Part shown: piece after piece, positions 2,103-50,761 of the stretch
How the letters are laid out: each line of letters opens with the position of its first letter
Numbering within the stretch: position 1 is the first letter of the stretch
Translations under genes and position numbers: made by a program
The notes under the pieces: model-generated
The model's input: only the letters and a program-made list of their open reading frames with translations
Told to the model about the DNA's origin: nothing
Databases searched by the model: none
Source of the DNA: Actinomycetota bacterium
GTDB taxonomy: Bacteria > Actinomycetota > UBA4738 > JACQTL01
Reading direction: 5' to 3'
NCBI GenBank assembly: GCA_045805265.1
Contig: JBJMLO010000011.1
Span: forward strand, 110,148-174,147
Length of the DNA stretch: 64,000 bases

Positions 2103-3137
2103 TCAGGACGTGCCGAACGGCGTCAGGCGGACCCCGGCCGGCGGCGAGGCCCGGCCCACCACGTGGGCGTCGTGGCCGGCCTCCCGCGCCGCCGCGATCG
2201 CGTCGGTGGCTCCGCCGGCGTCGACCACCAGGATCATGCCGAGCCCCATGTTGAACGTCGACCACATGTCCCGGTCGGCGACCTCGGCCACCCGTTGGAT
2301 CAGGCCGAACACCGGCGGCCGGACCCAGGCCGACACGTCGACGTCCGCCCCCAGCTCCTCGGGGAGCGCGCGGGGCAGGTTCTCGGGGATCCCCCCGCCG
2401 GTCACGTGTGCCGCGGCGTGGAGGACCCCCCGGCGGGCCAGCGTCACGACGAGCGGTGCGTACACGGCCGTCGGTTCCATCAGCTCGTCGGCCATCGTCC
2501 GTCCGCCCAGCTCGCCTGGCCGGTCGTCGAGCCGGACGGCGCCCGAGTCCAGCACCCCGGAACGCACCAGGCTGTAGCCGTTCGCGTGCAGCCCGCTCGA
2601 CGCCAGGCCCACCAGCACGTCGCCGGGCCGCACCCGCCGGGGGCCGAGGAGGTGGTCGTCGTGGACGAGCCCCACGCAGAACCCGGCCAGGTCGAACCGG
2701 TCGGGCTCCATCACGCCGGGATGCTCGGCGGTCTCGCCTCCCAGCAGGGCGCAGCCGGCCCGGCGGCACCCCTCGGCAACGCCCTCGACGACCGCGGCGG
2801 CCCGTTCCGGCACCAGCGCGCCCACCGCCAGGTAGTCGAGGAAGAACAGCGGCTCCGCGCCCGTGCACGCGACGTCGTCGGCGCACATCGCGACGAGGTC
2901 GATCCCGATCGTGTCGAGCCGCCCGGTGAGCCGCGCGATCTCGGTCTTGGTCCCCGCGCCGTCGGTGGCGGCGGCCAGGTGCCGCCCCTCCCCGATCGAG
3001 AACAGCCCGGCGAACCCGCCCACCGCTTCAACGGCCTCGGGGCGGGTGGCGCGAGCGGCGACGCCGGCGATCAGCGACACGGCCTTCGCCGCGGCGTCCA
3101 GGTCGACGCCGGCGCGACGGTAGGCCTCGGCGCCCAC
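2103..3137 (-). CDS. purM: phosphoribosylformylglycinamidine cyclo-ligase (AIR synthetase)
   Basis: N-terminus AYRRAGVDLDAAAKAV matches the conserved AGVD PurM start, with the PurM fold following (VDYLAVG..., HVTGGG). Proposed GTG start at 3137 overlaps the purF TAG (GTAGTG). Confidence 0.85.
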   Translation of the reverse strand: MGAEAYRRAGVDLDAAAKAVSLIAGVAARATRPEAVEAVGGFAGLFSIGEGRHLAAATDGAGTKTEIARLTGRLDTIGIDLVAMCADDVACTGAEPLFFLDYLAVGALVPERAAAVVEGVAEGCRRAGCALLGGETAEHPGVMEPDRFDLAGFCVGLVHDDHLLGPRRVRPGDVLVGLASSGLHANGYSLVRSGVLDSGAVRLDDRPGELGGRTMADELMEPTAVYAPLVVTLARRGVLHAAAHVTGGGIPENLPRALPEELGADVDVSAWVRPPVFGLIQRVAEVADRDMWSTFNMGLGMILVVDAGGATDAIAAAREAGHDAHVVGRASPPAGVRLTPFGTS

Positions 3138-4558
3138 TACTGTCCGGAGGCGGGCTGCTCCAGCAGGAGCTTCGTCGGCTCCTGCTCCGGGATGGGCACC
3201 GGGTAGTAGCCGTCGAAGCAGGCGCGGCAGAACTCTCCCGACCGGGAGCCGGTGGCCTCGACCAGGTCCTCGAGCTCCAGGTATGCCAGGGAGTCGGCCC
3301 CGACGAACTCCCGGACCTCCTCGACCGACAGGTCGCTCGCCACCAGCTCCTGCCTGGTCGACATGTCGATCCCGTAGAAGCACGGCCATCGGATGGGCGG
3401 CGAGGTGATCCGCAGGTGGATGGCCGCCGCGCCGGCCTCGCGGAGGATCTGCACGATCTGCCGCGTGGTCGTCCCACGCACGATCGAGTCGTCGACGATC
3501 ACCAGTCGCTTCCCCCGGACGGCGTCCGGCATGGGGTTCAGCTTCAGCTTCACTCCCCGCTGGCGGAGCGACGGCGCCGGCTGGATGAATGTCCGACCCA
3601 CGTAGCGGTTCTTCATCAGGCCCTCGCCATACGGGATCCCGGCCGCTGCGGCGAACCCCTGCGCGGCCGAGTCGGCGGTGTCCGGGACGGGGACCACCAT
3701 GTCTGCCTCCACGGGAGACTGGCGGGCCAGGCGCGCTCCCATCTCGACTCGGGCCAGGTGGACGGTGCGGCCGTACAGCCGGGAGTCCGCCCGGGCCAGG
3801 TACGCGAACTCGAACAGGCACAGCGCCTTCCGCGGCGACTCCGCGAAGCGCCGGCTCCGCAGGCCCCGGTCATCGACCATGACCAGCTCGCCGGGTTCAA
3901 CCTCCCGGACGTACGTCGCGCCGACGATGTCGAGCGCCGCGGTCTCACTGGCGAAGCAGAACCCGCCGGGCAGCTTGCCGATGGCCAGTGGGCGCAGGCC
4001 GTGCGGGTCGCGCGCGGCGAACACGGTCCGCTCGTCCATGAACAGGAACGAGAACGCGCCCTCCAGACGGGGCAGGGCGCGGAGCGCGGCCTCCTCGACG
4101 CCGTCCTCGATCTGCGCGGCGATCATCGAGGCGACCAGGTCGGAGTCGGTGGTGGAGCGCCCGGACGGCCGGCCGTCCCGGCCGGTCTCCTCCGCCAGCC
4201 GGCGGGTGTTCACCAGGTTGCCGTTGTGGCCGAGGGCCAGCCCGCGGGTGCCGTCGGTCTTGAACGAAGGCTGCGCGTTCTCCCAGGTCGTCGAGCCGGT
4301 GGTGGAGTACCGCGTGTGCCCGATGCCGAGGTCGCCCTGCAGCGTGGACAGCGTGGCCTCGTCGAACACCTGCGCGACGAGCCCCAGCTCCCGGTACACG
4401 AGTATGTTCCGGAGGTCGGACACGGCCATCCCGGCGGATTCCTGTCCCCGGTGCTGGAGGGCGAACAGTCCGAAGTAGATGAGCCTGGAGATGTCCTCGC
4501 CGGGCGCCCACACCCCGAACAGGCCACAGGCTTCGCGCGGGCCTTCGCCGTCCCCCAT
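3137..4558 (-). CDS. purF: amidophosphoribosyltransferase
   Basis: ATG at 4558 gives MGDGEGPREA-CGLFGVWAP with the N-terminal nucleophile Cys. Contains the glutamine amidotransferase class II domain and the PRTase motif (VIVDDSIVRGTT). The upstream 117 codons of the ORF track are low-complexity and were rejected. Confidence 0.9.
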   Translation of the reverse strand: MGDGEGPREACGLFGVWAPGEDISRLIYFGLFALQHRGQESAGMAVSDLRNILVYRELGLVAQVFDEATLSTLQGDLGIGHTRYSTTGSTTWENAQPSFKTDGTRGLALGHNGNLVNTRRLAEETGRDGRPSGRSTTDSDLVASMIAAQIEDGVEEAALRALPRLEGAFSFLFMDERTVFAARDPHGLRPLAIGKLPGGFCFASETAALDIVGATYVREVEPGELVMVDDRGLRSRRFAESPRKALCLFEFAYLARADSRLYGRTVHLARVEMGARLARQSPVEADMVVPVPDTADSAAQGFAAAAGIPYGEGLMKNRYVGRTFIQPAPSLRQRGVKLKLNPMPDAVRGKRLVIVDDSIVRGTTTRQIVQILREAGAAAIHLRITSPPIRWPCFYGIDMSTRQELVASDLSVEEVREFVGADSLAYLELEDLVEATGSRSGEFCRACFDGYYPVPIPEQEPTKLLLEQPASGQ

Positions 4559-4745
4559 CGATCGGATGCTAGCACCCGTTACGGACGCGGCTTCGGAAGC
4601 ACCGCTAGATGGACCTTGCGGGCGACGGTCTCGCTCAGGTCGAAGGAGGAGACCCGCTCTCGCTCGGCTCGCTCCTCGCTCTGGCCCAGCTCGATGGAGC
4701 CGGCGCGTTCGAGCGGAAGCCCTGATCCCGGACCGACTCCGTGGC

Positions 4746-6957
4746 TCAGCGCTCGCCGAGCAGGCGGGGGATGGCGTCCTCGTAGACCGCCCGGGCCTCG
4801 GCGATCGTGAGCTCGAACAGGCTGTCGAACACCATGCGGGGGCCGCCCGTCTCGCCGAGGCGGGCGAACGGAACGTGGAGGGCGGCGGAGAGATCCTCGA
4901 ACCGCTGGGCACGCTCCGGTGCGACGCTGACCACGGCGCGGGAGGCCGACTCCGAGAAGAGGGTGACGTGCGGCGGGAGGTCGCCCGGCAGGGACACCGC
5001 GAACCCGGTGTCGGCCGCGATCGCCGACTCCGCCAGCGTGATCGCCAGCCCGCCGTCGCTGCAGTCGTGCGCGGAGTCGAGCAGGTCGTCGTGGGCGGCC
5101 CGCTGCAGCAGGCGGAGCAGCGCGGCCTCGCGGTCGAGGTCGAGCGACGGCGGCCGGCCGGAGACCCGGCCCAGGATGACCTCGCCGAACTCCGACCCCC
5201 CGAGCTCCGCCAGCGTCTCCCCCAGGAGGTACACGTACAGCCCCGGTCGGGGAAAGCCGGCGCCGACGACCAGCCGGTAGTCCTCGATCAGCCCGAGCAT
5301 GCCGACCACCGGGGTCGGCCAGATCGCGGAGTCGCCGGACTCGTTGTAGAAGCTGACGTTGCCGCCCGTGACCGGAGTCTGTAGCGCCCGGCATGCGTCG
5401 GCCATCCCCCGGACCGACTCGGCGAAGGCCCACATGACCTCCGGGCGCTCGGGGTTGCCGAAGTTCAGGCAGTTGGTGACCGCCAACGGTCTCGCGCCCA
5501 CCGTCGCCACGTTCCGAGCCGCCTCCGCGACCGCGTGGGCCGCTCCCAGGTACGGGTTGAGCGCGCCGTACCGGCCCTTGCCGTCGGTGGACAGCGCCAT
5601 GGCCTTCAGCGTGCCCTCGATGCGGACGATCGCCGCGTCGGCCCCCGGGCCCTGGACCGTCTGGCCGCCCACGATCGAGTCGTACTGTTCGAACGCCCAC
5701 CGCTTGCTGGCGACGTTCGGCGAGGCCAGGAGCGTCAGGAACGCCTCGCCGGGCGGCGTGGTGACCGTGGCGAACGTCGGGTCGTCCTCCGCCATCGCGT
5801 CGAGCTCGTCGGGCTCCCGCATGAGCCTGCGATAGGTGGGGCCTTCCTCGGCGAGCGACCTGGCCGGGACCTCGGCGACGACCTCGTCACCCCGCCGCGC
5901 GCGGAGGTTGCCGTGGCCGGCCACGCGCCCGATCACGGCAGGGGGGAGCCCCCACTTCTCGCACACGGCCGCGACCTCGTCGAAGCGGTCCGGCTCCACG
6001 ACGCCGAGCATCCGTTCCTGCGATTCGCTGGTGAGGATCTCGAACGGCTCCATCCCGGCCTGGCGCAGGGGCACGGCGTCGAGGTCGACGTCCGCGCCCA
6101 TGCCCGCGCGCGACGCCGACTCGCTGACCGCGCAGGTGAGCCCCGCGCCGCCCAGGTCCTGCAGCCCGATGAGCAGGTCGCGCTCGATCAGCTCCAGGCA
6201 GCACTCGATGAGGAGCTTCTCGGTGAAGGGATCGCCGATCTGCACCGACGGGCGGCTGTCCCCGGCATCGTCCTCGATGGTCCGGCTGGCCAGCACGCTC
6301 ACCCCGCCGATGCCGTCGCGGCCGGTGCGCCCGCCGATCAGCACCAGCAGGTTCCCCTCGCCTTCGGCGCGGCCCCGCATCAGCCGCTCTGCCCGGGCGA
6401 GGCCCACGCACATCACGTTCACCGTCGGGTTCGCGGTGTGGGCGGCGGCGAACGCGATCTCGCCGCCCACGGTGGGGACGCCGATGCAGTTGCCGTAGCC
6501 GCCGATCCCTCCGACCACGCCGCCCAGCAGCCACCGGTTCCGGGGCTCGGTCAGCGGGCCGAACCGCAGCGGGTCGAGCAGCGCGACGGGGCGGGCCCCC
6601 ATGCTGAGGATGTCCCGCACGATCCCGCCGACCCCCGTGGCGGCTCCCTGGTACGGCTCGACCGCCGAGGGGTGGGAGTGGGACTCCAGCTTGAACACGG
6701 CCGCCACCCCGTCGCCGAGGTCGACCACGCCGGCGTCCTCGCCCGGGCCGACCAGCACGGCGGGGCCCTCCGTGGGGAGCTTCCGCAGGTGGACCTTGCT
6801 CGACTTGTACGAGCAGTGCTCGGACCACATCACCGAGTACATGGCGAGCTCGGCGCGGTTCGGCTCGCGCCCGAGCGTGGCGACGACCCGGTCGTACTCC
6901 TCGTCGGTCAGGCCGAGTGCCCGGTGGAGCGCGTCGGCAGGCGGGGCCTCGGCCATC
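4746..6957 (-). CDS. purL: phosphoribosylformylglycinamidine synthase subunit PurL (FGAM synthase II)
   Basis: ATG at 6957 gives MAEAPPADALHRALGLTDEEYDRV...AMYSVMWSEHCSYKSSK, the classic PurL N-terminus. 737 aa. Confidence 0.9.
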
Positions 6958-7058
6958 AGGGAGCGGACGTGTCGGTGGGCGCCGGTACGGTCATGTGGCA
7001 AGAGGATGATAGATGCCCACCGGGCCGCCCGCCGAGGACGGGAAGGAGGCGCTCGATC

Positions 7059-7550
7059 GTGCGATGGGAGGAGTTCACGACCGTCTGCCCCGAGATCGCG
7101 CAGCAGGCCAGGGAGCGGTTCGAGCGCGATCAGCTGGTGCTCCTCGGAACCGTCACACGGGACGGGTGGCCGCGGATCAGCCCGTGCGAGCTCGACTTCG
7201 CCGAAGGGCACCTGTTCCTCGGGATGATGTGGCGTTCGCCGAAGGCGCTCGACCTGCTCCGAGGCAGCCCCCTCGCGGTCCACAGCGTCCAGGCCGACCG
7301 CCACGCGACCGAGCCCGACATCAAGCTGTCCGGCCACGCCGCGGACGTGGCGAACCCGGCGATGCGGGAGGCCTTCCGAGACGCCATCCGCCGGCGCATC
7401 GACTGGGCGCCCGAGGAGCCCCGGTTCCACCTGTTCTCGTTCGACATCGAGCGCGCGGCCGTGCTGGCGTTCGCGAACGACGTGGAGACGGTTACGACGT
7501 GGGATCCGGAACGGGGCCTGCGCACCTGGACGAAGCGGGGCGACGAGTAG
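7059..7550 (+). CDS. pyridoxamine 5'-phosphate oxidase-like (PPOX-class FMN/F420-binding) family protein
   Basis: GTG at 7059 with GGAAGGAGG at 7040-7048. 163 aa; split-barrel PPOX-like sequence (LVLLGTVTRDGWPRISPCELDF...LFLGMMWRSPKALDL). Its TAG abuts the purQ stop on the opposite strand. Confidence 0.5.
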   Translation: MRWEEFTTVCPEIAQQARERFERDQLVLLGTVTRDGWPRISPCELDFAEGHLFLGMMWRSPKALDLLRGSPLAVHSVQADRHATEPDIKLSGHAADVANPAMREAFRDAIRRRIDWAPEEPRFHLFSFDIERAAVLAFANDVETVTTWDPERGLRTWTKRGDE

Positions 7551-8255
7551 TCAGCCCACGCGCTCGATCGCGTGTTCCAGCAGCGAGGCGAACAGCGGCT
7601 GGCCGCCGGTCGGGCCGGTGTCGGGGTCCACGGCGTGCTCCGGGTGGGGCATGAGCCCCACCACGTTCCCCCGCTCGTTGCTGATGCCGGCGATCGAGTT
7701 CGCGGCCCCGTTCGGGTTGTGCTCGTCGCCGGTCTCGCCCTTCGGCCCCGCATACCGGAACACCACTAGACCCTCGTCCTCGATCCGCGCGAGCTCGTCG
7801 GCCGCCGCCGTGAACTGGCCCTCGCCGTGCTTGATGGGGATCCGGACCAGCTCGCCGGGCACGAGTCCCGCGCTCAGCACACTGGTGGACGTCTCGACGC
7901 GCAGCGTCACGACCCGGCACACGAACCGCAGCGAGCGGTTGCGGAGCAGCGCGCCGGGCAAGAGGCCGGCCTCGCACAGAATCTGGAAGCCGTTGCAGAT
8001 GCCCACCACCGGGTGGCCGGCGTCCGCGAACTCGCGGACCGCGGGCATCACGTCGGCGAAGCGCGCGATCGCCCCGGTGCGGAGGTAGTCGCCGTAGGAG
8101 AACCCGCCCGGCAGGATCACCGCGTGGAGCGACGGCAGCGTCAGGTCGCCGTGCCACACGGGCACGGGCTCGCCGCCCATCGCCCGCACGGCCCGCAGCG
8201 CGTCGCGGTCGTCGAGCGAGCCCGGGAACGTGACGACGCCGACCCGCGGCCTCAC
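7551..8255 (-). CDS. purQ: phosphoribosylformylglycinamidine synthase subunit PurQ (glutaminase)
   Basis: MRPRVGVVTFPGSLDDRDALRAV...GICNGFQILCEAGLLPG; class I glutamine amidotransferase with catalytic Cys in GICNGFQ. Confidence 0.9.
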   Translation of the reverse strand: MRPRVGVVTFPGSLDDRDALRAVRAMGGEPVPVWHGDLTLPSLHAVILPGGFSYGDYLRTGAIARFADVMPAVREFADAGHPVVGICNGFQILCEAGLLPGALLRNRSLRFVCRVVTLRVETSTSVLSAGLVPGELVRIPIKHGEGQFTAAADELARIEDEGLVVFRYAGPKGETGDEHNPNGAANSIAGISNERGNVVGLMPHPEHAVDPDTGPTGGQPLFASLLEHAIERVG

Positions 8256-8554
8256 GGCACCACCTCGGTCTCCTCCGACGAGACCTCGCGGGTCCAGGCC
8301 CTGGATCGCATCGGCACGACCTCAGCCGATTCGATGACCGGGTTCGACAGGAGCCGCCCGGCGATCTCTTCCGCGTCGGTGAGCGCGAGCTCGCCGTTGT
8401 CGGCCTCGACGGTCATCAGGAAGCGTTTGCCGGTCCGAACGTTCGACACGTTGGCCCATCCCATGTGCGGCAACGAATCCTCGATGGCCTTGGCCTGCGG
8501 GTCCAGCAGGCCCTCCTTCAACATCACGAGAACCTCGAAGCGGTACGCGATCAT
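8252..8554 (-). CDS. purS: phosphoribosylformylglycinamidine synthase subunit PurS
   Basis: ATG at 8554 overlaps the purC TGA (ATGA). MIAYRFEVLVMLKEGLLDPQAKAIEDSL... PurS fold. About 20 aa C-terminal extension relative to typical 80-aa PurS. Confidence 0.8.
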   Translation of the reverse strand: MIAYRFEVLVMLKEGLLDPQAKAIEDSLPHMGWANVSNVRTGKRFLMTVEADNGELALTDAEEIAGRLLSNPVIESAEVVPMRSRAWTREVSSEETEVVP

Positions 8555-9432
8555 GCCGCGCCCATCCTTCGCAGGTACTCCTCCCACGGCTCGCCCGTGA
8601 TGCGTTGGTAGGCCTCGCGGTACCGGTCGGCCGTCTGCTCGACCACGTCGTCGGGGAGCTCGGGCGCCGGGGGCTCGTGGTCCCAGCCGCTCGCGTCGAG
8701 CCAGTCCCGGACGAACTGCTTGTCGAACGAGGGCTGGGGGCCGCCGGGCGCGTACCGGTCGGCCGGCCAGAACCGCGACGAGTCCGGCGTGAGCACCTCG
8801 TCGCACAGGATGAGCTCGCCGCCCGAGAACCCGAACTCGAACTTCGTGTCGGCGACGATGACGCCCTGCTCGCCGGCGACCGACGCGCCGCGCTCGTAGA
8901 CCGCGATCGTGAGCTCCTGCAGCCTCTGCGCCAGCCCCTCGCCGATCAGGTCACCGGCGCGCTCGATCGAGATGTTCTCGTCGTGGCCGGTCTCGGCCTT
9001 GGTGGCCGGAGTGAAGATCGGCTCGGGCAGCCGGTCGGACTCCCGCAGCCCAGCAGGCAGCTCGACACCGCAGACCGACCGCGACGCTCGGTACTCCTTC
9101 CAGCCCGAACCGCTGAGGTAACCACGAGCCACGCACTCGATCGGGACCATGTCGGCACGCTGCACGAGCATCGCCCGCCCCGCCAGCTCCTCGTCGCCGC
9201 GGAACGGCTCCGGGAACTCCCGCGCGTCGGCCGTGATCAGATGGTTCGGCACGATGTCGGCCGTCCGTTCCAGCCAGAACAGGGTCAGCGCCGTCAGGAC
9301 CCGCCCCTTGTCGGGGATCGCGGTGGGCAGGACGACGTCGAAGGCGCTGATCCGGTCGCTCGCCACCATCAGCAGGTCGTCGCCGGCCTCGTAGACGTCG
9401 CGGACCTTGCCCCGCGCATGCAGTTCGGCCAT
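8551..9432 (-). CDS. purC: phosphoribosylaminoimidazole-succinocarboxamide synthase (SAICAR synthetase)
   Basis: ATG at 9432 gives MAELHARGKVRDVYEAGDDLLMVASDRISAFDVVL, the canonical PurC N-terminus. Confidence 0.9.
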   Translation of the reverse strand: MAELHARGKVRDVYEAGDDLLMVASDRISAFDVVLPTAIPDKGRVLTALTLFWLERTADIVPNHLITADAREFPEPFRGDEELAGRAMLVQRADMVPIECVARGYLSGSGWKEYRASRSVCGVELPAGLRESDRLPEPIFTPATKAETGHDENISIERAGDLIGEGLAQRLQELTIAVYERGASVAGEQGVIVADTKFEFGFSGGELILCDEVLTPDSSRFWPADRYAPGGPQPSFDKQFVRDWLDASGWDHEPPAPELPDDVVEQTADRYREAYQRITGEPWEEYLRRMGAA

Positions 9433-9448
9433 CACACCCACCAGAGCA

Positions 9449-10756
9449 TCACCCCCCGATCTCCAGCTTCTCCAACCGGTCGAACACGGCGTCGAGGTGC
9501 CGAACCGAGGCCGCCGGGTCGAACAACGCCTGGAACTCCGCCGGGGACAGGCGTTCCCTGACCTCCGGCCGGGACAGCAGGACGTCGCGAAAGTCGCCGT
9601 CGTCGTCCCACGCCGCCGCCGCGGCGGTCTGTACCACGTGATAGGCCTCCTCGCGCGACAGCCCCTTGTCGACGAGCGCCAGCAGCACGCCCTGCGAGAA
9701 CGCCAGCCCGCCACCGGCCTCCAGGTTCTCGAGCATCCGGTCGGGGAACACCCGCAGGCCCTCCATGACGCCAGTGAACAGGTGCAGGAGGTAGTGCGCC
9801 AGGACCGTCGAGTCGGGAAGGATCACCCGCTCGGCGCTCGAGTGCGAGATGTCGCGCTCGTGCCACAGCGCCACGTCCTCCAGCGCCGGGACCAGGTTCC
9901 CCCGGACCACCCGGGCCAGCCCGCACACCCGCTCGCAGACGATCGGGTTCCGCTTGTGGGGCATGGCGGAGGAACCCTTCTGCCCGGCGGCGAACGGCTC
10001 CTCGACCTCCCGGACCTCCGTCCTGGCCAGGTGCCGGATCTCGGTGGCGAACTTCTCCAGCGACGCGGCGGTGATGGCCAGCGCGGCCATGTACTCGGCG
10101 TGGCGGTCACGCTGGAGGATCTGCGACGACGCCTCGGCGGGCCGGAGGCCGAGCTCGGCGCACACGTACTCCTCGACGCGGGGGTCGACTTTCGCGTACG
10201 TGCCGACCACCCCGCTGACCTTCCCCACGGAGATCACGTCGCGGGCCCGGCGGAGCCGCTCCCGGTCGCGGTCCAGCTCGAACGTCCACACGGCCAGCTT
10301 GTGTCCGAACGTGACGGGCTCGGCGTGGACGCCGTGCGTCCGCCCCATCATCACGGTCCCCCGGTGCTCCAGCGCCCGGGCCCGGACCACCGCCATCAGC
10401 CGCTCCAGCCGGGCCAGGAGCAGGTCGGCGGCCTCGCGCAGCTGCAGTGCGAGCCCGGTGTCGAGCAGGTCCGAGGAGGTCATCCCGAAGTGGATCCAGC
10501 GTCCCTCCGGCCCCACGGACTCCGCGACGTTCTGCACGAACGCGGCGACGTCGTGGTTCGTCGTGCGCTCCAGCTCGGCCACGCGTTCGATGCTGAACGA
10601 GGCGCGTGTGCGGATCGCGGTCAGGTCCGGCTCCGGGATGCGGCCCAGCCGGGCCCACGCCTCGCAGGCCAGGACCTCGATGCGCAGCCAGTGGCCCAGC
10701 CGGGCCTCGTCCGTCCACACGGCGGCCATCTCGGGCAGCGTGTACCGGGGGATCAC
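9449..10756 (-). CDS. purB: adenylosuccinate lyase
   Basis: MIPRYTLPEMAAVWTDEARL...HFGMTSSDLLDT; fumarate-lyase family signature (GSSAMPHKRNP). Confidence 0.9.
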   Translation of the reverse strand: MIPRYTLPEMAAVWTDEARLGHWLRIEVLACEAWARLGRIPEPDLTAIRTRASFSIERVAELERTTNHDVAAFVQNVAESVGPEGRWIHFGMTSSDLLDTGLALQLREAADLLLARLERLMAVVRARALEHRGTVMMGRTHGVHAEPVTFGHKLAVWTFELDRDRERLRRARDVISVGKVSGVVGTYAKVDPRVEEYVCAELGLRPAEASSQILQRDRHAEYMAALAITAASLEKFATEIRHLARTEVREVEEPFAAGQKGSSAMPHKRNPIVCERVCGLARVVRGNLVPALEDVALWHERDISHSSAERVILPDSTVLAHYLLHLFTGVMEGLRVFPDRMLENLEAGGGLAFSQGVLLALVDKGLSREEAYHVVQTAAAAAWDDDGDFRDVLLSRPEVRERLSPAEFQALFDPAASVRHLDAVFDRLEKLEIGG

Positions 10757-10781
10757 CGGCGATCGGCCCTTCCGGCGCCGG

Positions 10782-11261
10782 TCACAGCTTCAGGCCCTCC
10801 GCCAGGTCCTCCTTGAACCGCCGGAGCCGGCGGCGGACGTCCTCGTCGCCGACCCCGATGATCTGGGCGGCGAGGATCGCCGCGTTGGTCGCCCCGTCGA
10901 TCGACACCGTCGCCACGGGGATCCCCCGCGGCATCATCACCGTGGAGTACAGCGCGTCGAGGCCGTTCAGGTACTTCGTCCAGATCGGAACGCCGATCAC
11001 CGGCAGCACCGTCCGGGCCGCGACCGCGCCAGCCAGGTGCGCGGCGAGCCCGGCGCCGCAGACGATCACCTTGAGCCCCCGCTCCTCGGCCAGCCTCGCG
11101 TACTCGTCGACAAGGTCGGGATTGCGGTGCGCGGACAGGACACGGATCTCGTTCGGGATCTCCAGCTTGTCGAGGATGGTCTCGGTCTGCTGGACGACGG
11201 GGAGGTCGGAGGCGGACCCCGTAAGGATCCCGACCAGCGGGCTCGGCCCTGCCTCAACCAC
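10782..11261 (-). CDS. purE: 5-(carboxyamino)imidazole ribonucleotide mutase (N5-CAIR mutase)
   Basis: VGILTGSASDLPVV...GAGLAAHLAGAVAARTVLPVIGVP; 159 aa, typical PurE. Confidence 0.9.
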   Translation of the reverse strand: MVEAGPSPLVGILTGSASDLPVVQQTETILDKLEIPNEIRVLSAHRNPDLVDEYARLAEERGLKVIVCGAGLAAHLAGAVAARTVLPVIGVPIWTKYLNGLDALYSTVMMPRGIPVATVSIDGATNAAILAAQIIGVGDEDVRRRLRRFKEDLAEGLKL

Positions 11262-11292
11262 CTGTTCGATCCTCCGCCGGCGCCGTCCGGGC

Positions 11293-12552
11293 TCAGTTTC
11301 CCGCCGCGATGTCGCGACGGTACTGCATCCCGTCGAACGACACCCGCCCGCACGCCTCGTAGGCGAGGCCGCGGGCGTCCTCGAGGGAGGCTCCCAGCGC
11401 CGACACGGCGAGGACCCTCCCGCCTGCGGTCAGCACTCTACCGTCTCGCCGCGCCGTTCCCGAGTGGAACACCTGGACGCCGGGGACCGCGGCCGCCGCC
11501 TCCAGCCCGTCGACCGGCACCCCGGTCCGCGGTTCGCCCGGGTATCCCTCCGAGGCCAGCACGACGCTCACACAGGCCTCGTCGGCCCACCCGGCCCGGA
11601 CGTCCGCCAGGTTCCCGTTCACGCAGGCCAGCAGGACCTCGCACACATCGGTGCGGAGGCGGGGGACCAGGGCCTGCGTCTCCGGATCGCCGAACCGGCA
11701 GTTGAACTCGAGGACCTGGGGCCCGTCGGCCGTCAGCATCATGCCCGCGTACACGACCCCCCGGTACACGATCCCCTCGTCGCTCAGCGCCCGGACGGTC
11801 GGCTCCAGGACGTCGGTCACGATCCGGTCGCTGGTCTCGTCGTCAACGAACGGAACGGGCGAGTAGGCTCCCATCCCGCCGGTGTTCGGGCCGGTGTCCC
11901 CGTCGCCGGCCCGTTTGTGGTCCTGGGCGAGCGCGAGCGGCAGCACGGTCCGCCCATCGGTCAGGGCCAGCGCGCTCACCTCGCGTCCCTCCAGGAACCG
12001 CTCGACAACGACGGTCTTCGGGGCGTCGCCCGGCCGCCGGTCCAGGGAGGCCCGCACGGCGCGGTCCGCCTCCGCGCGGTCCTCGGTGACCGTGACGCCC
12101 TTCCCCGCCGCCAGCCCGTCGGCCTTGACCACGAACGGGGGCCCGACCTCGTCGAGGAACGCCAGGGCCGGCTGCTCTTCCGTGAAGGCCTCCGACCGCC
12201 CTGCCGGGATCCCGTGACGGCGGCACAGGTCCTTGGCCCACGACTTCGAGCCCTCAAGCCGCGCGCCCGCCCGGGTCGGCCCGAAGATCGGCAGGCCGCG
12301 TTCCTGGAACTCGTCGACGAGGCCGGCCACGAGCGGCGCCTCCGGCCCGACCACGGTGAGGTCGATGGCCTCCCGCTCGGCGAACTCCGCCAGGCCCGGC
12401 AGGTCGGCCGCGGCGATGGGCTCGCACGTGGCCACCTGCGCGATCCCGGCGTTCCCCGGCGCGGCGAACAGCCGGTCGACCGACGGGTTCTGCGCGATCC
12501 TCCACGCCAGGGCGTGCTCGCGGCCCCCCTGCCCGACGATCAGCACGTTCAC
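11293..12552 (-). CDS. purD: phosphoribosylamine--glycine ligase
   Basis: MNVLIVGQGGREHALAWRIAQ... with ATP-grasp domain; 419 aa. The stop overlaps the purA start region. Confidence 0.9.
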   Translation of the reverse strand: MNVLIVGQGGREHALAWRIAQNPSVDRLFAAPGNAGIAQVATCEPIAAADLPGLAEFAEREAIDLTVVGPEAPLVAGLVDEFQERGLPIFGPTRAGARLEGSKSWAKDLCRRHGIPAGRSEAFTEEQPALAFLDEVGPPFVVKADGLAAGKGVTVTEDRAEADRAVRASLDRRPGDAPKTVVVERFLEGREVSALALTDGRTVLPLALAQDHKRAGDGDTGPNTGGMGAYSPVPFVDDETSDRIVTDVLEPTVRALSDEGIVYRGVVYAGMMLTADGPQVLEFNCRFGDPETQALVPRLRTDVCEVLLACVNGNLADVRAGWADEACVSVVLASEGYPGEPRTGVPVDGLEAAAAVPGVQVFHSGTARRDGRVLTAGGRVLAVSALGASLEDARGLAYEACGRVSFDGMQYRRDIAAGN

Positions 12553-13823
12553 GACCGCATCAGGGTCTGCTCTCGGGAGGGACCGACCGAGACCGCGCCG
12601 ACCCTCACGCCGGCCAGCTCGGTGACGTGCTCGATGTACGCCTGCGCCGCCTTCGGGAGGTCATCGAAGGAACGGGCCTCGGAGAGGTCTTCCTCCCAGC
12701 CGTCGACCTCCTCGTACACGGGCTCGGCGCGATGGAACAGCGACTGGTGGGGCGGGAAGTCGTCGAACGTGTCGCCGTCCGCACGGTACGCCGTGCACAC
12801 CTTCACGGCCGGGAAGCCCGACAGCACGTCGAGCTTCGTCAGGAACACCTCGGTGAGGCCGTTCAGGCGGGCGGCGTACCGGAGCAGCACGGCGTCGAAC
12901 CACCCGCACCGGCGCTTGCGGCCGGTGGTCGTGCCGAACTCTTGCCCTCGGTCCCCCATTCGCTCCCCGTCGGGGCCCGTGTCCTCCGTCGGGAACGGCC
13001 CCGCGCCGACTCGGGTGACGTAGGCCTTGGTCACCCCGATCACGTCGGTCACCTCGCCGGGGCCGAGCCCAGCACTGGCCAGGGCGCCGCCCGCCACGGG
13101 CGAGGACGAGGTCACGAACGGGTACGTCCCGTGGTCGAGGTCGAGCATCGTCCCCTGCGCCCCCTCCAGCATCACGTGCTTGCCCTCACGGAGCGCGTCG
13201 TACAGGAGCTTCGAGGTGTCCGCGACGTGGGACGCCAGGCGCTCGGCGTAGCCCATGTAGTCCGCGACCACCCGGTCGGACTCGAGCGGCAGCCGACCGT
13301 ACACCTTGGTCAGGACGAGGTTCTTCTCCTTGAGGACCACCTCGAGCTTCTGGCGGAAGATCTTCTCGTCGTAGAGGTCCTGGACCCGCAGGCCGATCCG
13401 GGCCGCGCGGTCGGCGTACGCGGGGCCGATCCCGCGCTTGGTGGTCCCCAGCGCGTTCCGGCCCAGGAATCGCTCGGTCACCTTCTCGAGCTCCAGGTGG
13501 TGGGGCATGATCAGGTGGGCGTTCCCGCTGAGCACCAACCTCGACGTGTCGATGGACCCCGCCTCGAGGCGGTCCATCTCCTCCAGCAGCACCCGGGGAT
13601 CGACGACCACGCCGTCGGCGATGACCGACGTGATGTGGGGGTACAGGATCCCCGACGGCACCAGGTGCAGCTTCAGCAGCCGCTCGCCGGCGAGGACCGT
13701 GTGGCCGGCATTGTTCCCCCCCTGGTACCGGACCACGAAGTCCATGCGGTCGGCGACGAAGTCCGTGACCTTGCCCTTGCCCTCGTCGCCCCACTGCGTC
13801 CCGACCAGGATCGTTGCCGGCAT
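12549..13823 (-). CDS. purA: adenylosuccinate synthetase
   Basis: MPATILVGTQWGDEGKGKVTD... P-loop GDEGKGK and QGGNNAGHT motifs; 424 aa. Confidence 0.9.
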   Translation of the reverse strand: MPATILVGTQWGDEGKGKVTDFVADRMDFVVRYQGGNNAGHTVLAGERLLKLHLVPSGILYPHITSVIADGVVVDPRVLLEEMDRLEAGSIDTSRLVLSGNAHLIMPHHLELEKVTERFLGRNALGTTKRGIGPAYADRAARIGLRVQDLYDEKIFRQKLEVVLKEKNLVLTKVYGRLPLESDRVVADYMGYAERLASHVADTSKLLYDALREGKHVMLEGAQGTMLDLDHGTYPFVTSSSPVAGGALASAGLGPGEVTDVIGVTKAYVTRVGAGPFPTEDTGPDGERMGDRGQEFGTTTGRKRRCGWFDAVLLRYAARLNGLTEVFLTKLDVLSGFPAVKVCTAYRADGDTFDDFPPHQSLFHRAEPVYEEVDGWEEDLSEARSFDDLPKAAQAYIEHVTELAGVRVGAVSVGPSREQTLMRS

Positions 13824-13886
13824 GGCCGGATTGTCCCACGCCCGCCACGGGGCCTCCCGACAGGGCGACCGCCGGGGTTCGGCCGG

Positions 13887-26121: not shown

Positions 26122-26991
26122 TCAGGCGGAACGGACGAGCGGCGCGACCTCGGTGGCGAGCCGCTCGCGCTGGCCGGCGGGATCCGGGCCGGCCGGCCAG
26201 AGGTTCAAGGCGGTGAAACCGATCGCGAGGAACGCCCGCAGCTGCTCGGCGCACCGGTGGGGAGGGCCGCTCACGACGTACGGCCGGGGGTCCTCCCGTT
26301 CGTCGACCCGGATCCCCACGTTGTAGGCGTATGCCAGCTCGGCGGGGTCGCGCCCGGCCTCCTCAGCCGCCCGGCGGATCCGGTCGGTCATGCCCCGGGC
26401 CCGGTCGGGCGGAGCGAAGCGGAACGACGGGATCCAACCGTCAGCGAGCCGCCCGGTCACGGCCAGCGAGCGGTTGCCGTACGAGCCGGTCCAGACGGGA
26501 ATCGCCCGGTCCGGCTTCGGTTCCATCTCGGCCGCCTCGGTGTGGAAGTGTCTGCCGTGGAACGTGAACGAGCGCTCGGTCCACAGCCCGCGGAGGATCC
26601 GGATGGCCTCCTCCATCGCGTCGACCTTGTCGCGAGGCTCCCGGACCTCCAAGCCGAACGCGCTGAACTCGGCGTCGGAGCCGCCGCCGCCGATGCCGAG
26701 GACGAGCCGCCCGCCGGACAGCCGGTCGAACGACTCGGCCATCTTGGCCAGCACCGCCGGGTGACGATATGGAAGACCCAGCACGTCGGTGACGATCCGG
26801 ACCCGGGAGGTGTGCGCGGCGACCCATGCCAGCGTCGTCCATGTCTCAAACGAGGGATGCGTGCCGGCCAGGTGGTCGGAGCAGGACACGAAGTCGAACC
26901 CGAGCTCCTCGGCGTGCTGCGCGTCGGCGACCGGGTCTGCGCCCGGCAGCGCCGACTGGCTCAGATTCACCCCGAGGAGGGGCGTGCTCAT
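26122..26991 (-). CDS. LLM-class (luciferase-like) flavin/F420-dependent oxidoreductase
   Basis: 289 aa; luciferase-like TIM-barrel motifs (AEELGFDFVSCSDHL, GRLVLGIGGGG). Confidence 0.8.
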   Translation of the reverse strand: MSTPLLGVNLSQSALPGADPVADAQHAEELGFDFVSCSDHLAGTHPSFETWTTLAWVAAHTSRVRIVTDVLGLPYRHPAVLAKMAESFDRLSGGRLVLGIGGGGSDAEFSAFGLEVREPRDKVDAMEEAIRILRGLWTERSFTFHGRHFHTEAAEMEPKPDRAIPVWTGSYGNRSLAVTGRLADGWIPSFRFAPPDRARGMTDRIRRAAEEAGRDPAELAYAYNVGIRVDEREDPRPYVVSGPPHRCAEQLRAFLAIGFTALNLWPAGPDPAGQRERLATEVAPLVRSA

Positions 26992-26992
26992 C

Positions 26993-27151
26993 TCATGAGG
27001 ACGGGTAGGGGACGGCCACGACGGCCAGCTCCTCGATGCCAGCGAAGTCGTCCGGGTTGCACGTGAACAAGGGCAACTCGTTGGGCAGCGCCGTGGCGGC
27101 GATCATTGCGTCACCGCCGCTCACGGGCGGGGATCCACCGAGCCATCGAGG
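26993..27151 (-). pseudogene. vapC: vapC (PIN-domain toxin) 3' remnant: only the C-terminal 45-50 codons remain
   Basis: Reverse-strand translation ...AMIAATALPNELPLFTCNPDDFAGIEELAVVAVPYPSS* matches the conserved C-terminal block of VapC PIN toxins (A.A..LPL.T.NP.DF.....L.VV). The frame opens only at 27151, so about 90 N-terminal codons including the catalytic Asp residues are absent. Confidence 0.5.
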
Positions 27152-27353
27152 TCACGGCGCAGCACGGAGGGATCGACGTGGGGGAGCCGTCGCCACCGCT
27201 CGAGCACGGAACTCGTCAGCGCCTCGGCCCGGAGCGGTCGTACCTCGGCACGGGCACGCCCGACCTGGTAATCGTCACCCGCTCGCCGCGCGCCACGCGA
27301 TCGACCACCTCGCCAGCCTTTTCCCTCAGCTCTCGGATGGTGACGTTCGCCAT
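27121..27353 (-). pseudogene. vapB: Phd/YefM-family (VapB-type) antitoxin, apparently frameshifted
   Basis: ATG at 27353. MANVTIRELREKAGEVVDRVARGERVTITRSGVPV is a classic Phd/YefM N-terminus; this frame stops at 27216 after about 45 codons. The plausible continuation AEVRPLRAEALTSSVLERWRRL...DPRP* (stop at 27121) lies in another reading frame, implying a 1-nt indel near 27250. Confidence 0.5.
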
Positions 27354-27392
27354 TTCTCACTTGGTATCACACGAGGGACATGGCTCGGGAAC

Positions 27393-28265
27393 CTACAGCC
27401 CGGCGATCTTCGGGATCACCTCGCGGCCGACGATCTCGATCGGCTCGATGTACTGAATGCCCCGCATCCCGCCGATGGCGCCCTGCGCGCCCGCCTCGGC
27501 CAGCCTGCCGAGCTCGTCGATCATCTGCGGGACCCTGACGCCGTCCCGGCCTGGGTCGAGGCGGCAGTAGGCGGTCTTCCAGATCCCGTCGTAGTCGCGG
27601 TCCTCCCGCTCGCAGTGCTCCCGGAGCACCGCGAGCTTGTGCCGGACCGTCGCCGCGTCGCCGAACAGGTTGCACGCGTCGGCGTACCGCGCCACCAGCC
27701 GGAGCGTCACCTTCTCGCCGCCCCCGCCGATCAAGATCTTCGGCCGGGGCTGCTGGAGGGCCTGGGGTTCGTTCAGGGTCTGCGCGAGCCGATAGTGCTT
27801 CCCCTCGAACGCGCCCTCGTCCTCGCTCCACATCTGCAGGGTGATGCGCAGCGTCTCCTCGAGGCGCTCGAAGCGCTCCTTCACGGGCGGGAACGGCACG
27901 CCGAGGCCCTCGTGCTCGTGCTGGTTCCAGGCGGCGCCGATGCCGAACCACGCCCGGCCGCCGGACAGCACGTCCAGCGTCGTGACGGTCTTGGCCAATA
28001 TGCCGGGGTGCCGGTAGGTGACGCCCGTGACCAGCGTGCCGAGGCCGAGGCGCGACGTGACGCCGGCCAGGAACCCGAGCGCCGTGTACGCCTCGAGCAT
28101 CGGCTGGCGCACGTCGCCGACCCCAGGGATCTGGAAGAAGTGGTCCATCACCCACATCGAGTGGAATCCCGAGTCGTCCGCGGCCCGGCCGATGCGGGCG
28201 AGGGTGGGACCGATGTCGGAGTCCTCGCCCCACGTGAACGACGGGACCTGCAGCCCGATCTCCAT
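27393..28265 (-). CDS. LLM-class (luciferase-like) F420/flavin-dependent oxidoreductase (paralog of 26122-26991)
   Basis: 290 aa; GFHSMWVMDHFFQIPG and LSGGRAWFGIGAAWNQHEHEGLG. Confidence 0.8.
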   Translation of the reverse strand: MEIGLQVPSFTWGEDSDIGPTLARIGRAADDSGFHSMWVMDHFFQIPGVGDVRQPMLEAYTALGFLAGVTSRLGLGTLVTGVTYRHPGILAKTVTTLDVLSGGRAWFGIGAAWNQHEHEGLGVPFPPVKERFERLEETLRITLQMWSEDEGAFEGKHYRLAQTLNEPQALQQPRPKILIGGGGEKVTLRLVARYADACNLFGDAATVRHKLAVLREHCEREDRDYDGIWKTAYCRLDPGRDGVRVPQMIDELGRLAEAGAQGAIGGMRGIQYIEPIEIVGREVIPKIAGL

Positions 28266-28407: not shown

Positions 28408-28929
28408 TCAGGCCCCGGTGATCGGACCCTCCGCCCGGACCTTCTGGACAGCGACCAGCGCCTGCTGGAGGTCCTTCAACCACTCGCCCTGCTTCTCCGC
28501 GACGAGCTTCACGCACCAGGCCAGCGCGTGGCTCCTGCTGCGGGCCACGCCCGCGTCGACGAGCGTGTCGAGGACGTCGCGCTCCGGCATCCGCAGGCGG
28601 GTCATCACGGGGACCGACAGCGTGGTGAACAGCTGCCGCTCCCCGCCGATCTCGACGCCCCACGCGACCTTGCGGCCGTAGCGCCGCTCGGCCTCCCGGG
28701 CGATGCGCATGCGCTGCTCCCGGGTGTCCTCCCGGAACTGCTTCACGCGCCCCTCGCGCGCCGCCTCCGTCGCCGCCTCGCTGGCGCCCTCGCCCGCCTC
28801 GGCGTCGGCGAGCGTCCCGACCACGAGGATCTCCTCCCGGTCGTAGCTCACCTCCGGCGCCCCGGTGAACCACCCGTCGGGGATCCGCCCCGCGAACCAC
28901 CCGCTCAGCTTGTCGTCCTTCTCGGCCAT
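28408..28929 (-). CDS. hypothetical protein (173 aa)
   Basis: Clean ORF with balanced composition; ATG at 28929 preceded by GAGGAGG. No family recognised. Confidence 0.5.
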   Translation of the reverse strand: MAEKDDKLSGWFAGRIPDGWFTGAPEVSYDREEILVVGTLADAEAGEGASEAATEAAREGRVKQFREDTREQRMRIAREAERRYGRKVAWGVEIGGERQLFTTLSVPVMTRLRMPERDVLDTLVDAGVARSRSHALAWCVKLVAEKQGEWLKDLQQALVAVQKVRAEGPITGA

Positions 28930-29110
28930 CCGTGTGCCTCCTCGGTCTCTGCGTGATTACGAGATTACACCATTTCTCAACCGCGAGAGGAGTCGCCCGG
29001 GTTGCCGGAGCGTGGCCCGCATGCACACGGGCTGTTGACATCTCGATGGAAGGCTAGACGCGTCATCCGCTGGACGACGCCTGACCCTCAGCGAGCGCGT
29101 CCGCGAGGCC

Positions 29111-50402: not shown

Positions 50403-50564
50403 GGGAACGGCAACGCTAGCAGGTCGGGATTCCCGCGCCCCGGGGCATGTTCCGAGGCTCGTCGTGAGGGCGTTTCCGCGGCCCGGGACACGAGCCATCC
50501 GGGCGCGGCCCCGACCGCGGCCCTTGCTAGAATGCGCGGCGCGACCGGCCTCCGGGCCGCTCTG

Positions 50565-50635
50565 GCGGATGTGGTTCAATGGCAGAACGCAAGCTTCCCA
50601 AGCTTGAGACGGGGGTTCGATTCCCCTCATCCGCT
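50565..50635 (+). tRNA. tRNA-Gly (anticodon CCC)
   Basis: Cloverleaf read by hand: acceptor GCGGATG/CATCCGC, D-arm GTTC-AATGGCA-GAAC, anticodon arm CAAGC-TTCCCAA-GCTTG (anticodon CCC), T-arm GGGGG-TTCGATT-CCCCT, discriminator U. CCA not encoded. Confidence 0.85.
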
Positions 50636-50761
50636 CCCTCCCCTCACAGGAGTGTTCGCGCGGGGACCGAGCGTTCGAGGCTCGGATGCGACGAGGAGTT
50701 GGGGCAGGACTTCCGTCCGAACCAATGGCATCGCTTCGTCGACGATCGAAACTGACCCAAC

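Follow-up and report, generated by a model that had tools for sequence, protein, structure and literature searches.

A probably inactivated remnant of a VapBC5-type toxin-antitoxin cassette between two LLM oxidoreductase genes of an uncultured Actinomycetota bacterium

Related toxin-antitoxin systems

The best solved relative of both partners of the cassette described here, in its intact form, is the VapBC5 system of Mycobacterium tuberculosis (Rv0626/Rv0627), the structure of which is available as PDB 3DBO (PMC10526153); VapB46 of the same species (PDB 6JQY) is grouped with VapBC5 as the closest known system. The intact toxin matches 3DBO with E=2e-15 over residues 5-131, and the antitoxin profile does so with E=3e-11. 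The likeness extends to the gene order, a Phd/YefM-like VapB being encoded upstream of, and overlapping, a PIN-domain VapC, to the actinobacterial host, and to the acidic positions LLDT, xEL, D-x-IAA and DDF, which align with the intact orthologous toxin. However, the relatedness is remote, and the copy found in the window (the whole stretch of 64,000 nucleotides analysed) is a pseudogene, with about 95 toxin residues missing and a frameshift in the antitoxin. The latter resembles the Phd/YefM family (Pfam PF02604; TIGR01552), which its N-terminal 35-41 residues match above threshold, but the toxin it is paired with is a PIN/VapC, not Doc or YoeB, and its reading frame in the window is split. 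As in VapBC modules, two small co-directional genes are found, the antitoxin first, with the stop and start codons overlapping (GTGA). The intact cassette of two relatives (L001 and L041, see below) would be a working toxin-antitoxin (TA) pair, for which we infer RNase activity, autoregulation and leaderless transcription.

Eroded chromosomal type II TA systems of Photorhabdus were catalogued by Belot et al. (Mol Biol Evol 2026; PMC13617665). There, modules are acquired at permissive spots and undergo complete deletion or truncation of the toxin ORF, the flanks being conserved and the TA genes not, and both routes of loss are described as common (PMC13617665). That chromosomal TA modules first suffer truncation of the toxin and are then lost has been described before, and the phenomenon is a known one. 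We observed the Photorhabdus pattern at a single site, where the cassette is truncated in the window, intact in L001 and L041, and in the presumed deleted state in L015, L042 and L046. In contrast to Photorhabdus, the hosts are uncultured soil Actinomycetota, the module is a VapBC whose antitoxin is of the Phd type, the damage extends to toxin as well as antitoxin, and decay of the operator and promoter is also visible.

Organization of the locus

The cassette and its flanks comprise the following elements.

27393..28265, minus strand: LLM-A, intact F420-dependent LLM oxidoreductase of 290 aa, the upstream flank of the cassette (Pfam Bac_luciferase, E=3e-43)
27354..27392, minus strand: spacer of 39 nt, containing a degraded operator palindrome and a broken extended -10 box
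27121..27353, minus strand: vapB pseudogene (Phd/YefM-type antitoxin) in two frames, from alignment to L001, tblastn and Pfam
26993..27124, minus strand: vapC (PIN toxin) remnant of 43 codons, from alignment to L001 and L041 and tblastn
26122..26991, minus strand: LLM-B, intact F420-dependent LLM oxidoreductase of 289 aa, the downstream flank of the cassette (Pfam Bac_luciferase, E=7e-59)

The presence of these elements at these minus-strand coordinates is confirmed well beyond chance. Taken together, the locus is very probably the remnant of a type II toxin-antitoxin cassette of the VapBC5 type that was inactivated recently and no longer functions.

The flanking genes belong to different subfamilies: LLM-A scores 306 bits against NCBIfam TIGR03560 (Rv1855c family, cut-off 231.4), and LLM-B scores 178 bits against TIGR03619 (Rv2161c family, cut-off 166.9). 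A sequence-only reading of the window had tentatively tied the erosion to a duplication or insertion from which the LLM paralogs arose, and this suggestion fails. A recent tandem duplication is ruled out by the low identity of the two proteins (32% over 140 aa), by their assignment to different subfamilies and by their adjacency in relatives that have no TA genes (L015-17, L042-45 and L046); the cassette is inserted between two pre-existing, anciently diverged LLM genes. LLM-A is 100% identical to MFL5797197.1 in NCBI (MAG, Actinomycetota bacterium), and LLM-B shares about 93% nucleotide identity with its L001 ortholog. Exact-protein contig look-ups with LLM-A/P0121 gave no match, and a contig-level homolog scan returned only LLM-B homologs of at most 66% identity, without synteny and without TA genes. 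No transposase or integrase adjoins the window cassette, Rfam and tRNA scans had no match within the cassette region, and a scan of the region for consensus sigma-70 promoters and terminators found none.

Intact and empty alleles in related bacteria

The reading of the locus as a vapBC module in the process of erosion was borne out by comparison of the orthologous loci, which revealed that L001 and L041 have intact cassettes at this very site. L001, a soil-metagenome contig, has an intact vapB of 78 aa and a PIN gene of 141 aa, with LLM-B starting 2 nt further on, whereas L041 has the gene order AbmR, LLM-A, vapB (78 aa), PIN (143 aa), LLM-B, DUF and LemA. The vapC stop and the LLM-B start are separated by a 1-nt gap in L001 and overlap as ATGA in L041. 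Both PIN proteins have a complete Pfam PIN domain (37.5 and 45.7 bits, respectively) with all four conserved acidic residues. Against the NCBIfam VapC equivalogs NF047863 and NF047959 the intact orthologs reach 51-54 bits versus 140 and 22-24 versus 80, and by these scores we classify them as VapC-like PIN toxins outside both equivalogs.

Empty sites, with LLM-A adjoining LLM-B, are present in fully syntenic relatives, the spacer being 26 nt in L015-17, 34 nt in L042-45 and 12 nt in L046. The LLM-B start of L015, GTG-AGC, resembles the vapC start, which is suggestive only. The empty L015 spacer contains no deletion scar, its local alignment scoring no better than shuffled controls.

The tree of the flanks has the form ((L041,(window,L015)),L042),L046. 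Between L001 and L041, dS is 0.50 for vapB, 0.78 for vapC and 0.59 for the flank; the cassette has therefore diverged about as much as its surroundings, which indicates one old insertion co-diverging with the flanks. Between the window and L001 the dS of the cassette (0.47-0.60) exceeds that of the flank (0.18), a difference that is not fully explained and that suggests separate histories. Two independent gains at the same site, one in L041 and one in the window and L001, or a transfer by homologous recombination in the flanks, would account for such a difference, for the scarless L015 site and for a parsimony count that is tied between one gain plus one loss and two gains. Nevertheless, we regard this alternative as rather unlikely, as the junction architecture is identical, the cassettes are homologous, and cassette and flank dS agree between L001 and L041. 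With no scar in L015, one gain with a later loss is hard to tell strictly from two gains or from allelic replacement; this uncertainty concerns only the history of the cassette, and thus the conclusion that the window copy has decayed is unchanged.

Remnant of the toxin gene

The 43-codon ORF at 27124..26993 (MSGGDAMIAATALPNELPLFTCNPDDFAGIEELAVVAVPYPSS) matches Pfam PIN weakly when taken alone (E=0.031, profile positions 92-117 of 120; 15.3 bits, under the 23.6 cut-off) and has no match among the NCBIfam VapC equivalogs. Its proposed origin as the C-terminal part of a VapC PIN toxin was established by tblastn, in which residues 100-136 of the intact ortholog aligned to it with 84% identity (E=3e-17); its C-terminal 39 or so residues correspond to ortholog residues 100-138. 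The N-terminal two-thirds of the toxin had been described as missing. This catalytic N-terminal part is indeed gone, but it was lost through an internal deletion that left the frame and the GTG start intact and not through truncation at the 5' end: relative to L001, 285 nt encoding VapC residues ~3-97 are lost, the junction being ambiguous within 27118-27113, and a further 9 nt are deleted between 27002 and 27001. The only microhomologies at the junction of the large deletion are 4-5 nt candidates in the intact sequences. Two of the four acidic catalytic positions, the Asp of LLDT and the Glu of (A/T)EL, are deleted, and the Asp residues of DAMIAA and NPDDF are kept.

The remnant retains the original GTG start (27124-27122) together with a Ser codon, and the GTG overlaps the vapB stop as GTGA, as in L001 and L041. 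At the other end, the stop TGA (26995-26993) lies 1 nt from the LLM-B ATG (26991); this abutment had been correctly noticed, but it reflects the ancestral layout of the intact cassette and is not a product of decay. The same 43-aa remnant is encoded in an independent Logan assembly (P0243, on a contig of 1036 bp), with the same junction, the same end and one differing residue, an ancestral Ala that P0243 retains, the window carrying A14P relative to both P0243 and the intact orthologs. Since the PIN deletion recurs in an independently assembled, non-identical strain, it is real.

Operator and promoter

Promoters with TANNNT and TGNTANNNT motifs, as well as leaderless TA transcripts, are known in M. 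tuberculosis (PMC3898074). Upstream of vapB in five independent intact cassettes we identified the palindrome GTATCAC-N2-GTGATAC, with 7-9 of 9 self-complementary pairs, and the sequence TGATACNNT, ending 6-9 nt upstream of the ATG; a conserved operator and extended -10 motif is now defined for this VapBC5-like family. In the window the palindrome (27380-27363, TGTCCCTCGTGTGATACC; intact counterpart GTATCACGCGTGATAC) has only 4 of 9 self-complementary pairs left, and the extended -10 box (TGATACCAA; hexamer 27366-27361) lacks the final T of TANNNT. Judging from these changes, the palindromic operator overlapping the promoter that would serve autoregulation is no longer in place in the window.

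Antitoxin pseudogene

An antitoxin split between two frames by a 1-nt indel near 27250 had been proposed from the open reading frames, and both the split and its position proved right. The ATG at 27353 opens the frame of codons 1-35 (MANVTIRELREKAGEVVDRVARGERVTITRSGVPV), and the final 42 codons (AEVRPLRAEAL...DPRP) are in a different frame with a stop at 27123-27121. In agreement with this, the intact ortholog gave two tblastn HSPs in different frames (27353..27249 and 27249..27130), and in the alignment to L001 a single nucleotide is missing between 27250 and 27249, which changes CCCGTGGCCGAG to CCCGT-GCCGAG. A 3-nt deletion relative to L001, removing one Leu codon, lies between 27205 and 27204. 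The N-terminal ORF (27353-27216) is 45 aa long, and the DNA-binding N-terminal domain and the toxin-binding C-terminal region are in separate frames in the window (one assembly), whereas they form a single ORF in L001, L041, L002, L047 and L048. A programmed frameshift was considered and ruled out, as the antitoxin is a single-frame protein of about 78 aa in each of the 120 homologs listed and in every orthologous cassette.

The assignment of the antitoxin to Phd/YefM also stands. The frame-corrected product of 77 aa scores 34.2 bits against Pfam PhdYeFM (threshold 29.8) and 38.0 bits against TIGR01552 (cut-off 20.8), and the 45-aa ORF by itself reaches 31.1 bits against the same Pfam threshold. 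The joined product matches 625 family members across 90-100% of its length, the best of them with 87% identity. At positions where 94% or more of 120 homologs agree, it differs by N11E (Asn in 96%), G13A (Gly in 100%), L38V (Leu in 99%) and the lost L50 (Leu in 94%); its rare residues number six, which places it only within the top ~10% of the family.

The 1-nt deletion could alternatively be a sequencing or assembly error, concealing an intact 77-aa orphan antitoxin beside the deleted toxin, possibly kept for a regulatory role or for anti-addiction protection from incoming homologous vapBC modules. The sequence comes from a MAG, only this assembly shows the frameshift, with no second frameshifted antitoxin product in the collection, and dN/dS of vapB between the window and L001 is still 0.18. 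However, the missing base falls within a GG dinucleotide and not in a long homopolymer, and the assembly does not appear frameshift-prone, since elsewhere in the window the domain matches of ten large genes are complete and unsplit, and six flanking genes can be aligned to their orthologs over the full length; a GC3 frame plot for other frameshifts across the window was noisy, and the Pfam domain-completeness checks were used instead. An error in one base would also leave the 3-nt Leu deletion, the replaced G13, L38 and N11, and the degraded operator and -10 box, and no intact antitoxin more than 87% identical occurs in the collection, though the sister strain with the PIN remnant is assembled there. 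On balance, we find an error improbable and a genuine frameshift in a decaying vapB the better reading.

Proposed history of the cassette

The ancestral cassette was probably a self-contained unit of about 0.75 kb, in which the operator palindrome overlapped the extended -10 box and the transcript was probably leaderless. It would have encoded a VapB of 78 aa, in which a DNA-binding N-terminal domain of the Phd/YefM fold is followed by a C-terminal tail that binds the toxin, and, translationally coupled to it, a PIN-domain VapC of ~141 aa, presumably an Mg2+-dependent ribonuclease. Its insertion exactly between the LLM-A stop and the LLM-B start may be placed in an ancestor shared by the lineages of the window, L001 and L041, the sister lineage L015-17 being without any cassette. 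In the window lineage, the 285-nt in-frame deletion would have disarmed the toxin by taking away the greater part of the PIN fold; as nothing was left to neutralise, vapB and the operator/promoter would have become dispensable and begun to drift. The likely marks of this drift are the 1-nt frameshift splitting the two halves of vapB, the 3-nt deletion, the replaced near-invariant residues, five operator mismatches and the loss of the -10 T. We infer both this order of events, the toxin first, and the lack of residual function. Whereas one indel and one truncation had been recognized from the sequence alone, and rightly so, there are four indel lesions and regulatory decay in all.

Polarised substitutions number 26 on the window branch and 12 on the L001 branch, with nonsynonymous to synonymous changes of 10/11 versus 3/9; the excess of nonsynonymous changes on the window branch is not significant (Fisher p=0.28). 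The dN/dS between the window and L001 is 0.18-0.28, with vapB at the lower value, and GC3 is undecayed; the inactivation is therefore recent.

The in-frame deletion preserved both the start codon and the stop beside LLM-B, so that a 43-aa peptide could still be produced. That the remnant was kept as partly useful, by coupling or read-through of the mini-ORF into LLM-B or with the 45-aa VapB as a stand-alone DNA-binding protein, is nevertheless very improbable: although no allele has an obvious Shine-Dalgarno sequence for LLM-B, the 43-aa ORF with its GTG start is kept in two strains and the 45-aa ORF exceeds the Pfam threshold, one deletion in three is expected to be in frame by chance, the frameshift in vapB brings translation to an end at 27216, ~90 nt ahead of the mini-ORF, and thereby breaks the original coupling chain, the promoter and operator are degraded, LLM-B is presumably expressed without the cassette in the empty-site relatives, and the window remnant has gained the nonsynonymous A14P. 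There is a similarly slim chance that the mini-ORF, found in at least two strains, was co-opted as an upstream coupling ORF driving LLM-B translation, in which case the erosion of the TA cassette would have been shaped by the expression needs of the downstream gene.

As a decayed module, the locus completes a clean natural series of empty, intact and eroded states at one chromosomal site of uncultured soil Actinomycetota. The series would exemplify the expected toxin-first route of TA decay, and it sets the boundaries of a minimal vapBC cassette of about 0.75 kb inserted without neighbouring mobile-element genes. The eroded cassette is a clear but ordinary example of the gain and decay of a selfish module and will not surprise a TA specialist.

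Finally, the public record labels the 43-aa remnant a hypothetical protein and the 45-aa fragment a Phd/YefM antitoxin (MFL5797196.1); for both, pseudogene fragment is the better label.

Structure of the eroded vapBC locus

The toxin-antitoxin (TA) remnant lies on a 700-kb contig of an NCBI MAG assigned to an Actinomycetota bacterium, between two F420-type LLM oxidoreductase genes, LLM-A and LLM-B. Its closest intact counterpart, the source of the top antitoxin match, is L001, a 989-bp soil-metagenome contig that codes for an intact antitoxin of 78 aa, a PIN protein of 141 aa overlapping it and, 2 nt further on, the first part of an LLM-B ortholog (92% amino acid and ~93% nucleotide identity to LLM-B of the window). 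Relative to this reference the window cassette carries four indels.

Layout of the window locus and lesions relative to L001
28265..27393, minus strand, LLM-A
between LLM-A and the vapB ATG, minus strand, spacer of 39 nt
ATG at 27353, minus strand, antitoxin-like gene (vapB), first 35 and last 42 codons in different frames
between 27250 and 27249, minus strand, vapB, 1-nt deletion (GTGGCC to GT-GCC)
between 27205 and 27204, minus strand, vapB, 3-nt deletion (one Leu codon)
27124..26993, minus strand, 43-codon ORF (vapC remnant)
junction within 27118-27113, minus strand, vapC, in-frame 285-nt deletion, GTG start kept
between 27002 and 27001, minus strand, vapC, 9-nt deletion
26991..26122, minus strand, LLM-B

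The split-frame antitoxin described in the sequence-only reading was recovered again by tblastn with the intact L001 proteins. The joined 77-aa sequence exceeds the Pfam PhdYeFM threshold and has 625 nearly full-length matches in a ~78-aa Phd/YefM family (top identity 87%). The proposed VapC fragment downstream is likewise confirmed by 84% identity to residues 100-136 of the L001 toxin (E=3e-17); by itself, the 43-aa ORF matches only the last ~26 positions of the Pfam PIN profile (E=0.031). Most of the toxin fold is indeed missing: the 285-nt deletion took the Asp of LLDT and the Glu of xEL, and the acidic positions of DAMIAA and NPDDF are present. The GTG start of the remnant overlaps the vapB stop.

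In the public record, the 45-aa frameshift product (27216-27353, MFL5797196.1) is labelled 'Phd/YefM family antitoxin' and the 43-aa PIN remnant (26993-27124, MFL5797195.1, locus tag ACJ77A_04590) hypothetical protein; both are pseudogene fragments.

Authenticity of the lesions

The vapC deletion is real, since P0243, a 43-aa protein from an independent Logan assembly, has the same MSGG|DAMIAA junction and shortened C-terminus, and is not identical to the window remnant, retaining the ancestral Ala at one residue where the window has Pro. The 1-nt vapB frameshift, seen in one assembly, is probably genuine. A sequencing error would agree with the lack of a second frameshifted antitoxin product in the protein collection. 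However, the lost base lies outside any long homopolymer, no break is seen in ten large genes from other parts of the window or in six flanking genes, and the frame-corrected antitoxin is altered at near-invariant positions anyway: G13A (100% conserved), L38V (99%), N11E (96%) and loss of L50 (94%), as counted among the 120 homologs listed. Rare residues occupy six antitoxin positions in the window, two in L001 and none in the relative L041. Whether or not the frameshift is real, the module lacks a toxin. Assembly quality was checked on the purine-biosynthesis cluster (3137-13886, minus strand), which gave full-length domain matches for amidotransferase, FGAM synthase AIRS domains, GATase_5, SAICAR synthetase, adenylosuccinate lyase, GAR synthetase and adenylosuccinate synthetase.

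Upstream regulatory region

The palindrome GTATCAC-N2-GTGATAC lies 26-29 nt ahead of the vapB ATG in five independent intact cassettes, whose genomic contexts differ. Continuous with its right arm is TGATACNNT, which ends 6-9 nt before the ATG and agrees with the mycobacterial extended -10 consensus TGNTANNNT.

Palindrome and TGATACNNT sites
L001:1-27
L041:4071-4099
L002:3213-3239
L047:312-338
L048:2971-3000
27361-27380, window equivalent

The position of TGATACNNT matches the arrangement of most M. tuberculosis TA operons, which are reported to be leaderless (PMC3898074). Judged from sequence, palindrome and TGATACNNT together form a candidate VapB operator overlapping a leaderless promoter of this VapBC5-like antitoxin family. 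The intact cassettes keep 7-9 of nine self-complementary pairs; the window keeps four and has TACCAA as its -10 hexamer, so its control region has decayed too.

Evolution of the locus

Syntenic relatives share the gene order ClpB, AbmR-like, LLM-A, slot, LLM-B, DUF3137-like, LemA. A search of the orthologous locus for an intact vapBC, suggested earlier, found one in both L001 and L041; in the latter (78 and 143 aa) the PIN stop overlaps the LLM-B ATG. No TA occurs in L015-17, L042-45 or L046, where 26, 34 and 12 nt, respectively, separate LLM-A from LLM-B. The flanks give the tree ((L041,(window,L015)),L042),L046. Cassette dS between L001 and L041 (0.50 and 0.78) is similar to flank dS (0.59), and thus a single old insertion fits, after which the L015 lineage lost the cassette completely and the window copy decayed in part. 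Because the L015 slot has no recognisable deletion scar, allelic replacement or a second gain is a possible alternative.

In two more distant syntenic relatives (L052, 1338-1731; L053, 3874-4225), with LLM-A 82% identical and no LLM-B, a ~82-aa ORF on the reverse strand, without a Pfam match, lies in the slot between LLM-A and the DUF3137-like gene. The site downstream of LLM-A is therefore variable in general, beyond TA modules.

The suggested connection of the erosion with an LLM duplication is ruled out: LLM-A and LLM-B are 32% identical, fall into separate F420-LLM subfamilies (TIGR03560 and TIGR03619) and are adjacent in TA-less genomes. Several short metagenomic contigs have LLM-B homologs (59-72% identical) whose tblastn match is in two segments (L034:322-1186; L035:230-1098; L037:172-1003), which may indicate frameshifts or sequencing errors.

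Between the window and L001, dN/dS is still 0.18 (vapB) and 0.28 (vapC remnant), and GC3 is undecayed; the divergence thus accumulated mostly under selection and inactivation was recent. Polarised substitutions number 26 on the window branch versus 12 on the L001 branch (about twofold), with a non-significant non-synonymous excess on the former (p=0.28). Cassette dS (0.47-0.60; 26993-27353 versus L001:28-686) is roughly three times the value for the neighbouring LLM-B flank (0.18), which could reflect accelerated evolution after inactivation or recombination homogenising the flank.

Proposed mechanism and known systems

By family knowledge (PMC10526153), VapB dimers of the intact form would bind the operator and repress the leaderless vapBC mRNA, and the C-terminal tail of VapB would obstruct the active site of the PIN RNase. 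In the window lineage the toxin core was probably deleted before the antitoxin was damaged, because antitoxin loss with an active toxin would be deleterious; antitoxin and operator would then have become neutral and would now be eroding. Most likely the remnant is functionless, with a small residual possibility that the in-frame mini-ORF aids LLM-B translation.

Among characterised systems, M. tuberculosis VapBC5 (PDB 3DBO) is the closest and is matched in both chains; the kinship is remote, NCBIfam VapC equivalog cut-offs not being reached. Acquisition followed by toxin truncation or complete deletion in a conserved neighbourhood was described for Photorhabdus TA systems (Belot et al. 2026, PMC13617665), and the window locus follows the same pattern. 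It is an unsurprising, fresh instance of a known phenomenon, useful as an illustration and an annotation correction.

Other features

The gene upstream of LLM-A (28408-28929, minus strand) has an equivalog-level AbmR match (NF058631, 261 bits versus a cut-off of 160). AbmR is the ATP-binding transcription factor Rv1265, which controls the adjacent sRNA Mcr11 in M. tuberculosis; the neighbouring intergenic region (28930-29110) contains no Rfam family at the gathering threshold. The sole Rfam or ARAGORN match in the window is a tRNA-Gly(CCC) (50564-50638, plus strand), surrounded by ~0.5 kb without coding signal.

Related soil Actinomycetota contigs (L047:339-1713, L048:1418-3656, L049, L050) carry two to three Phd- or RHH-type antitoxin and PIN pairs side by side; this lineage is TA-rich, reminiscent of M. 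tuberculosis. The PIN gene call is 140 aa in L048 and L049, and 133 aa, with no antitoxin overlap, in L050.
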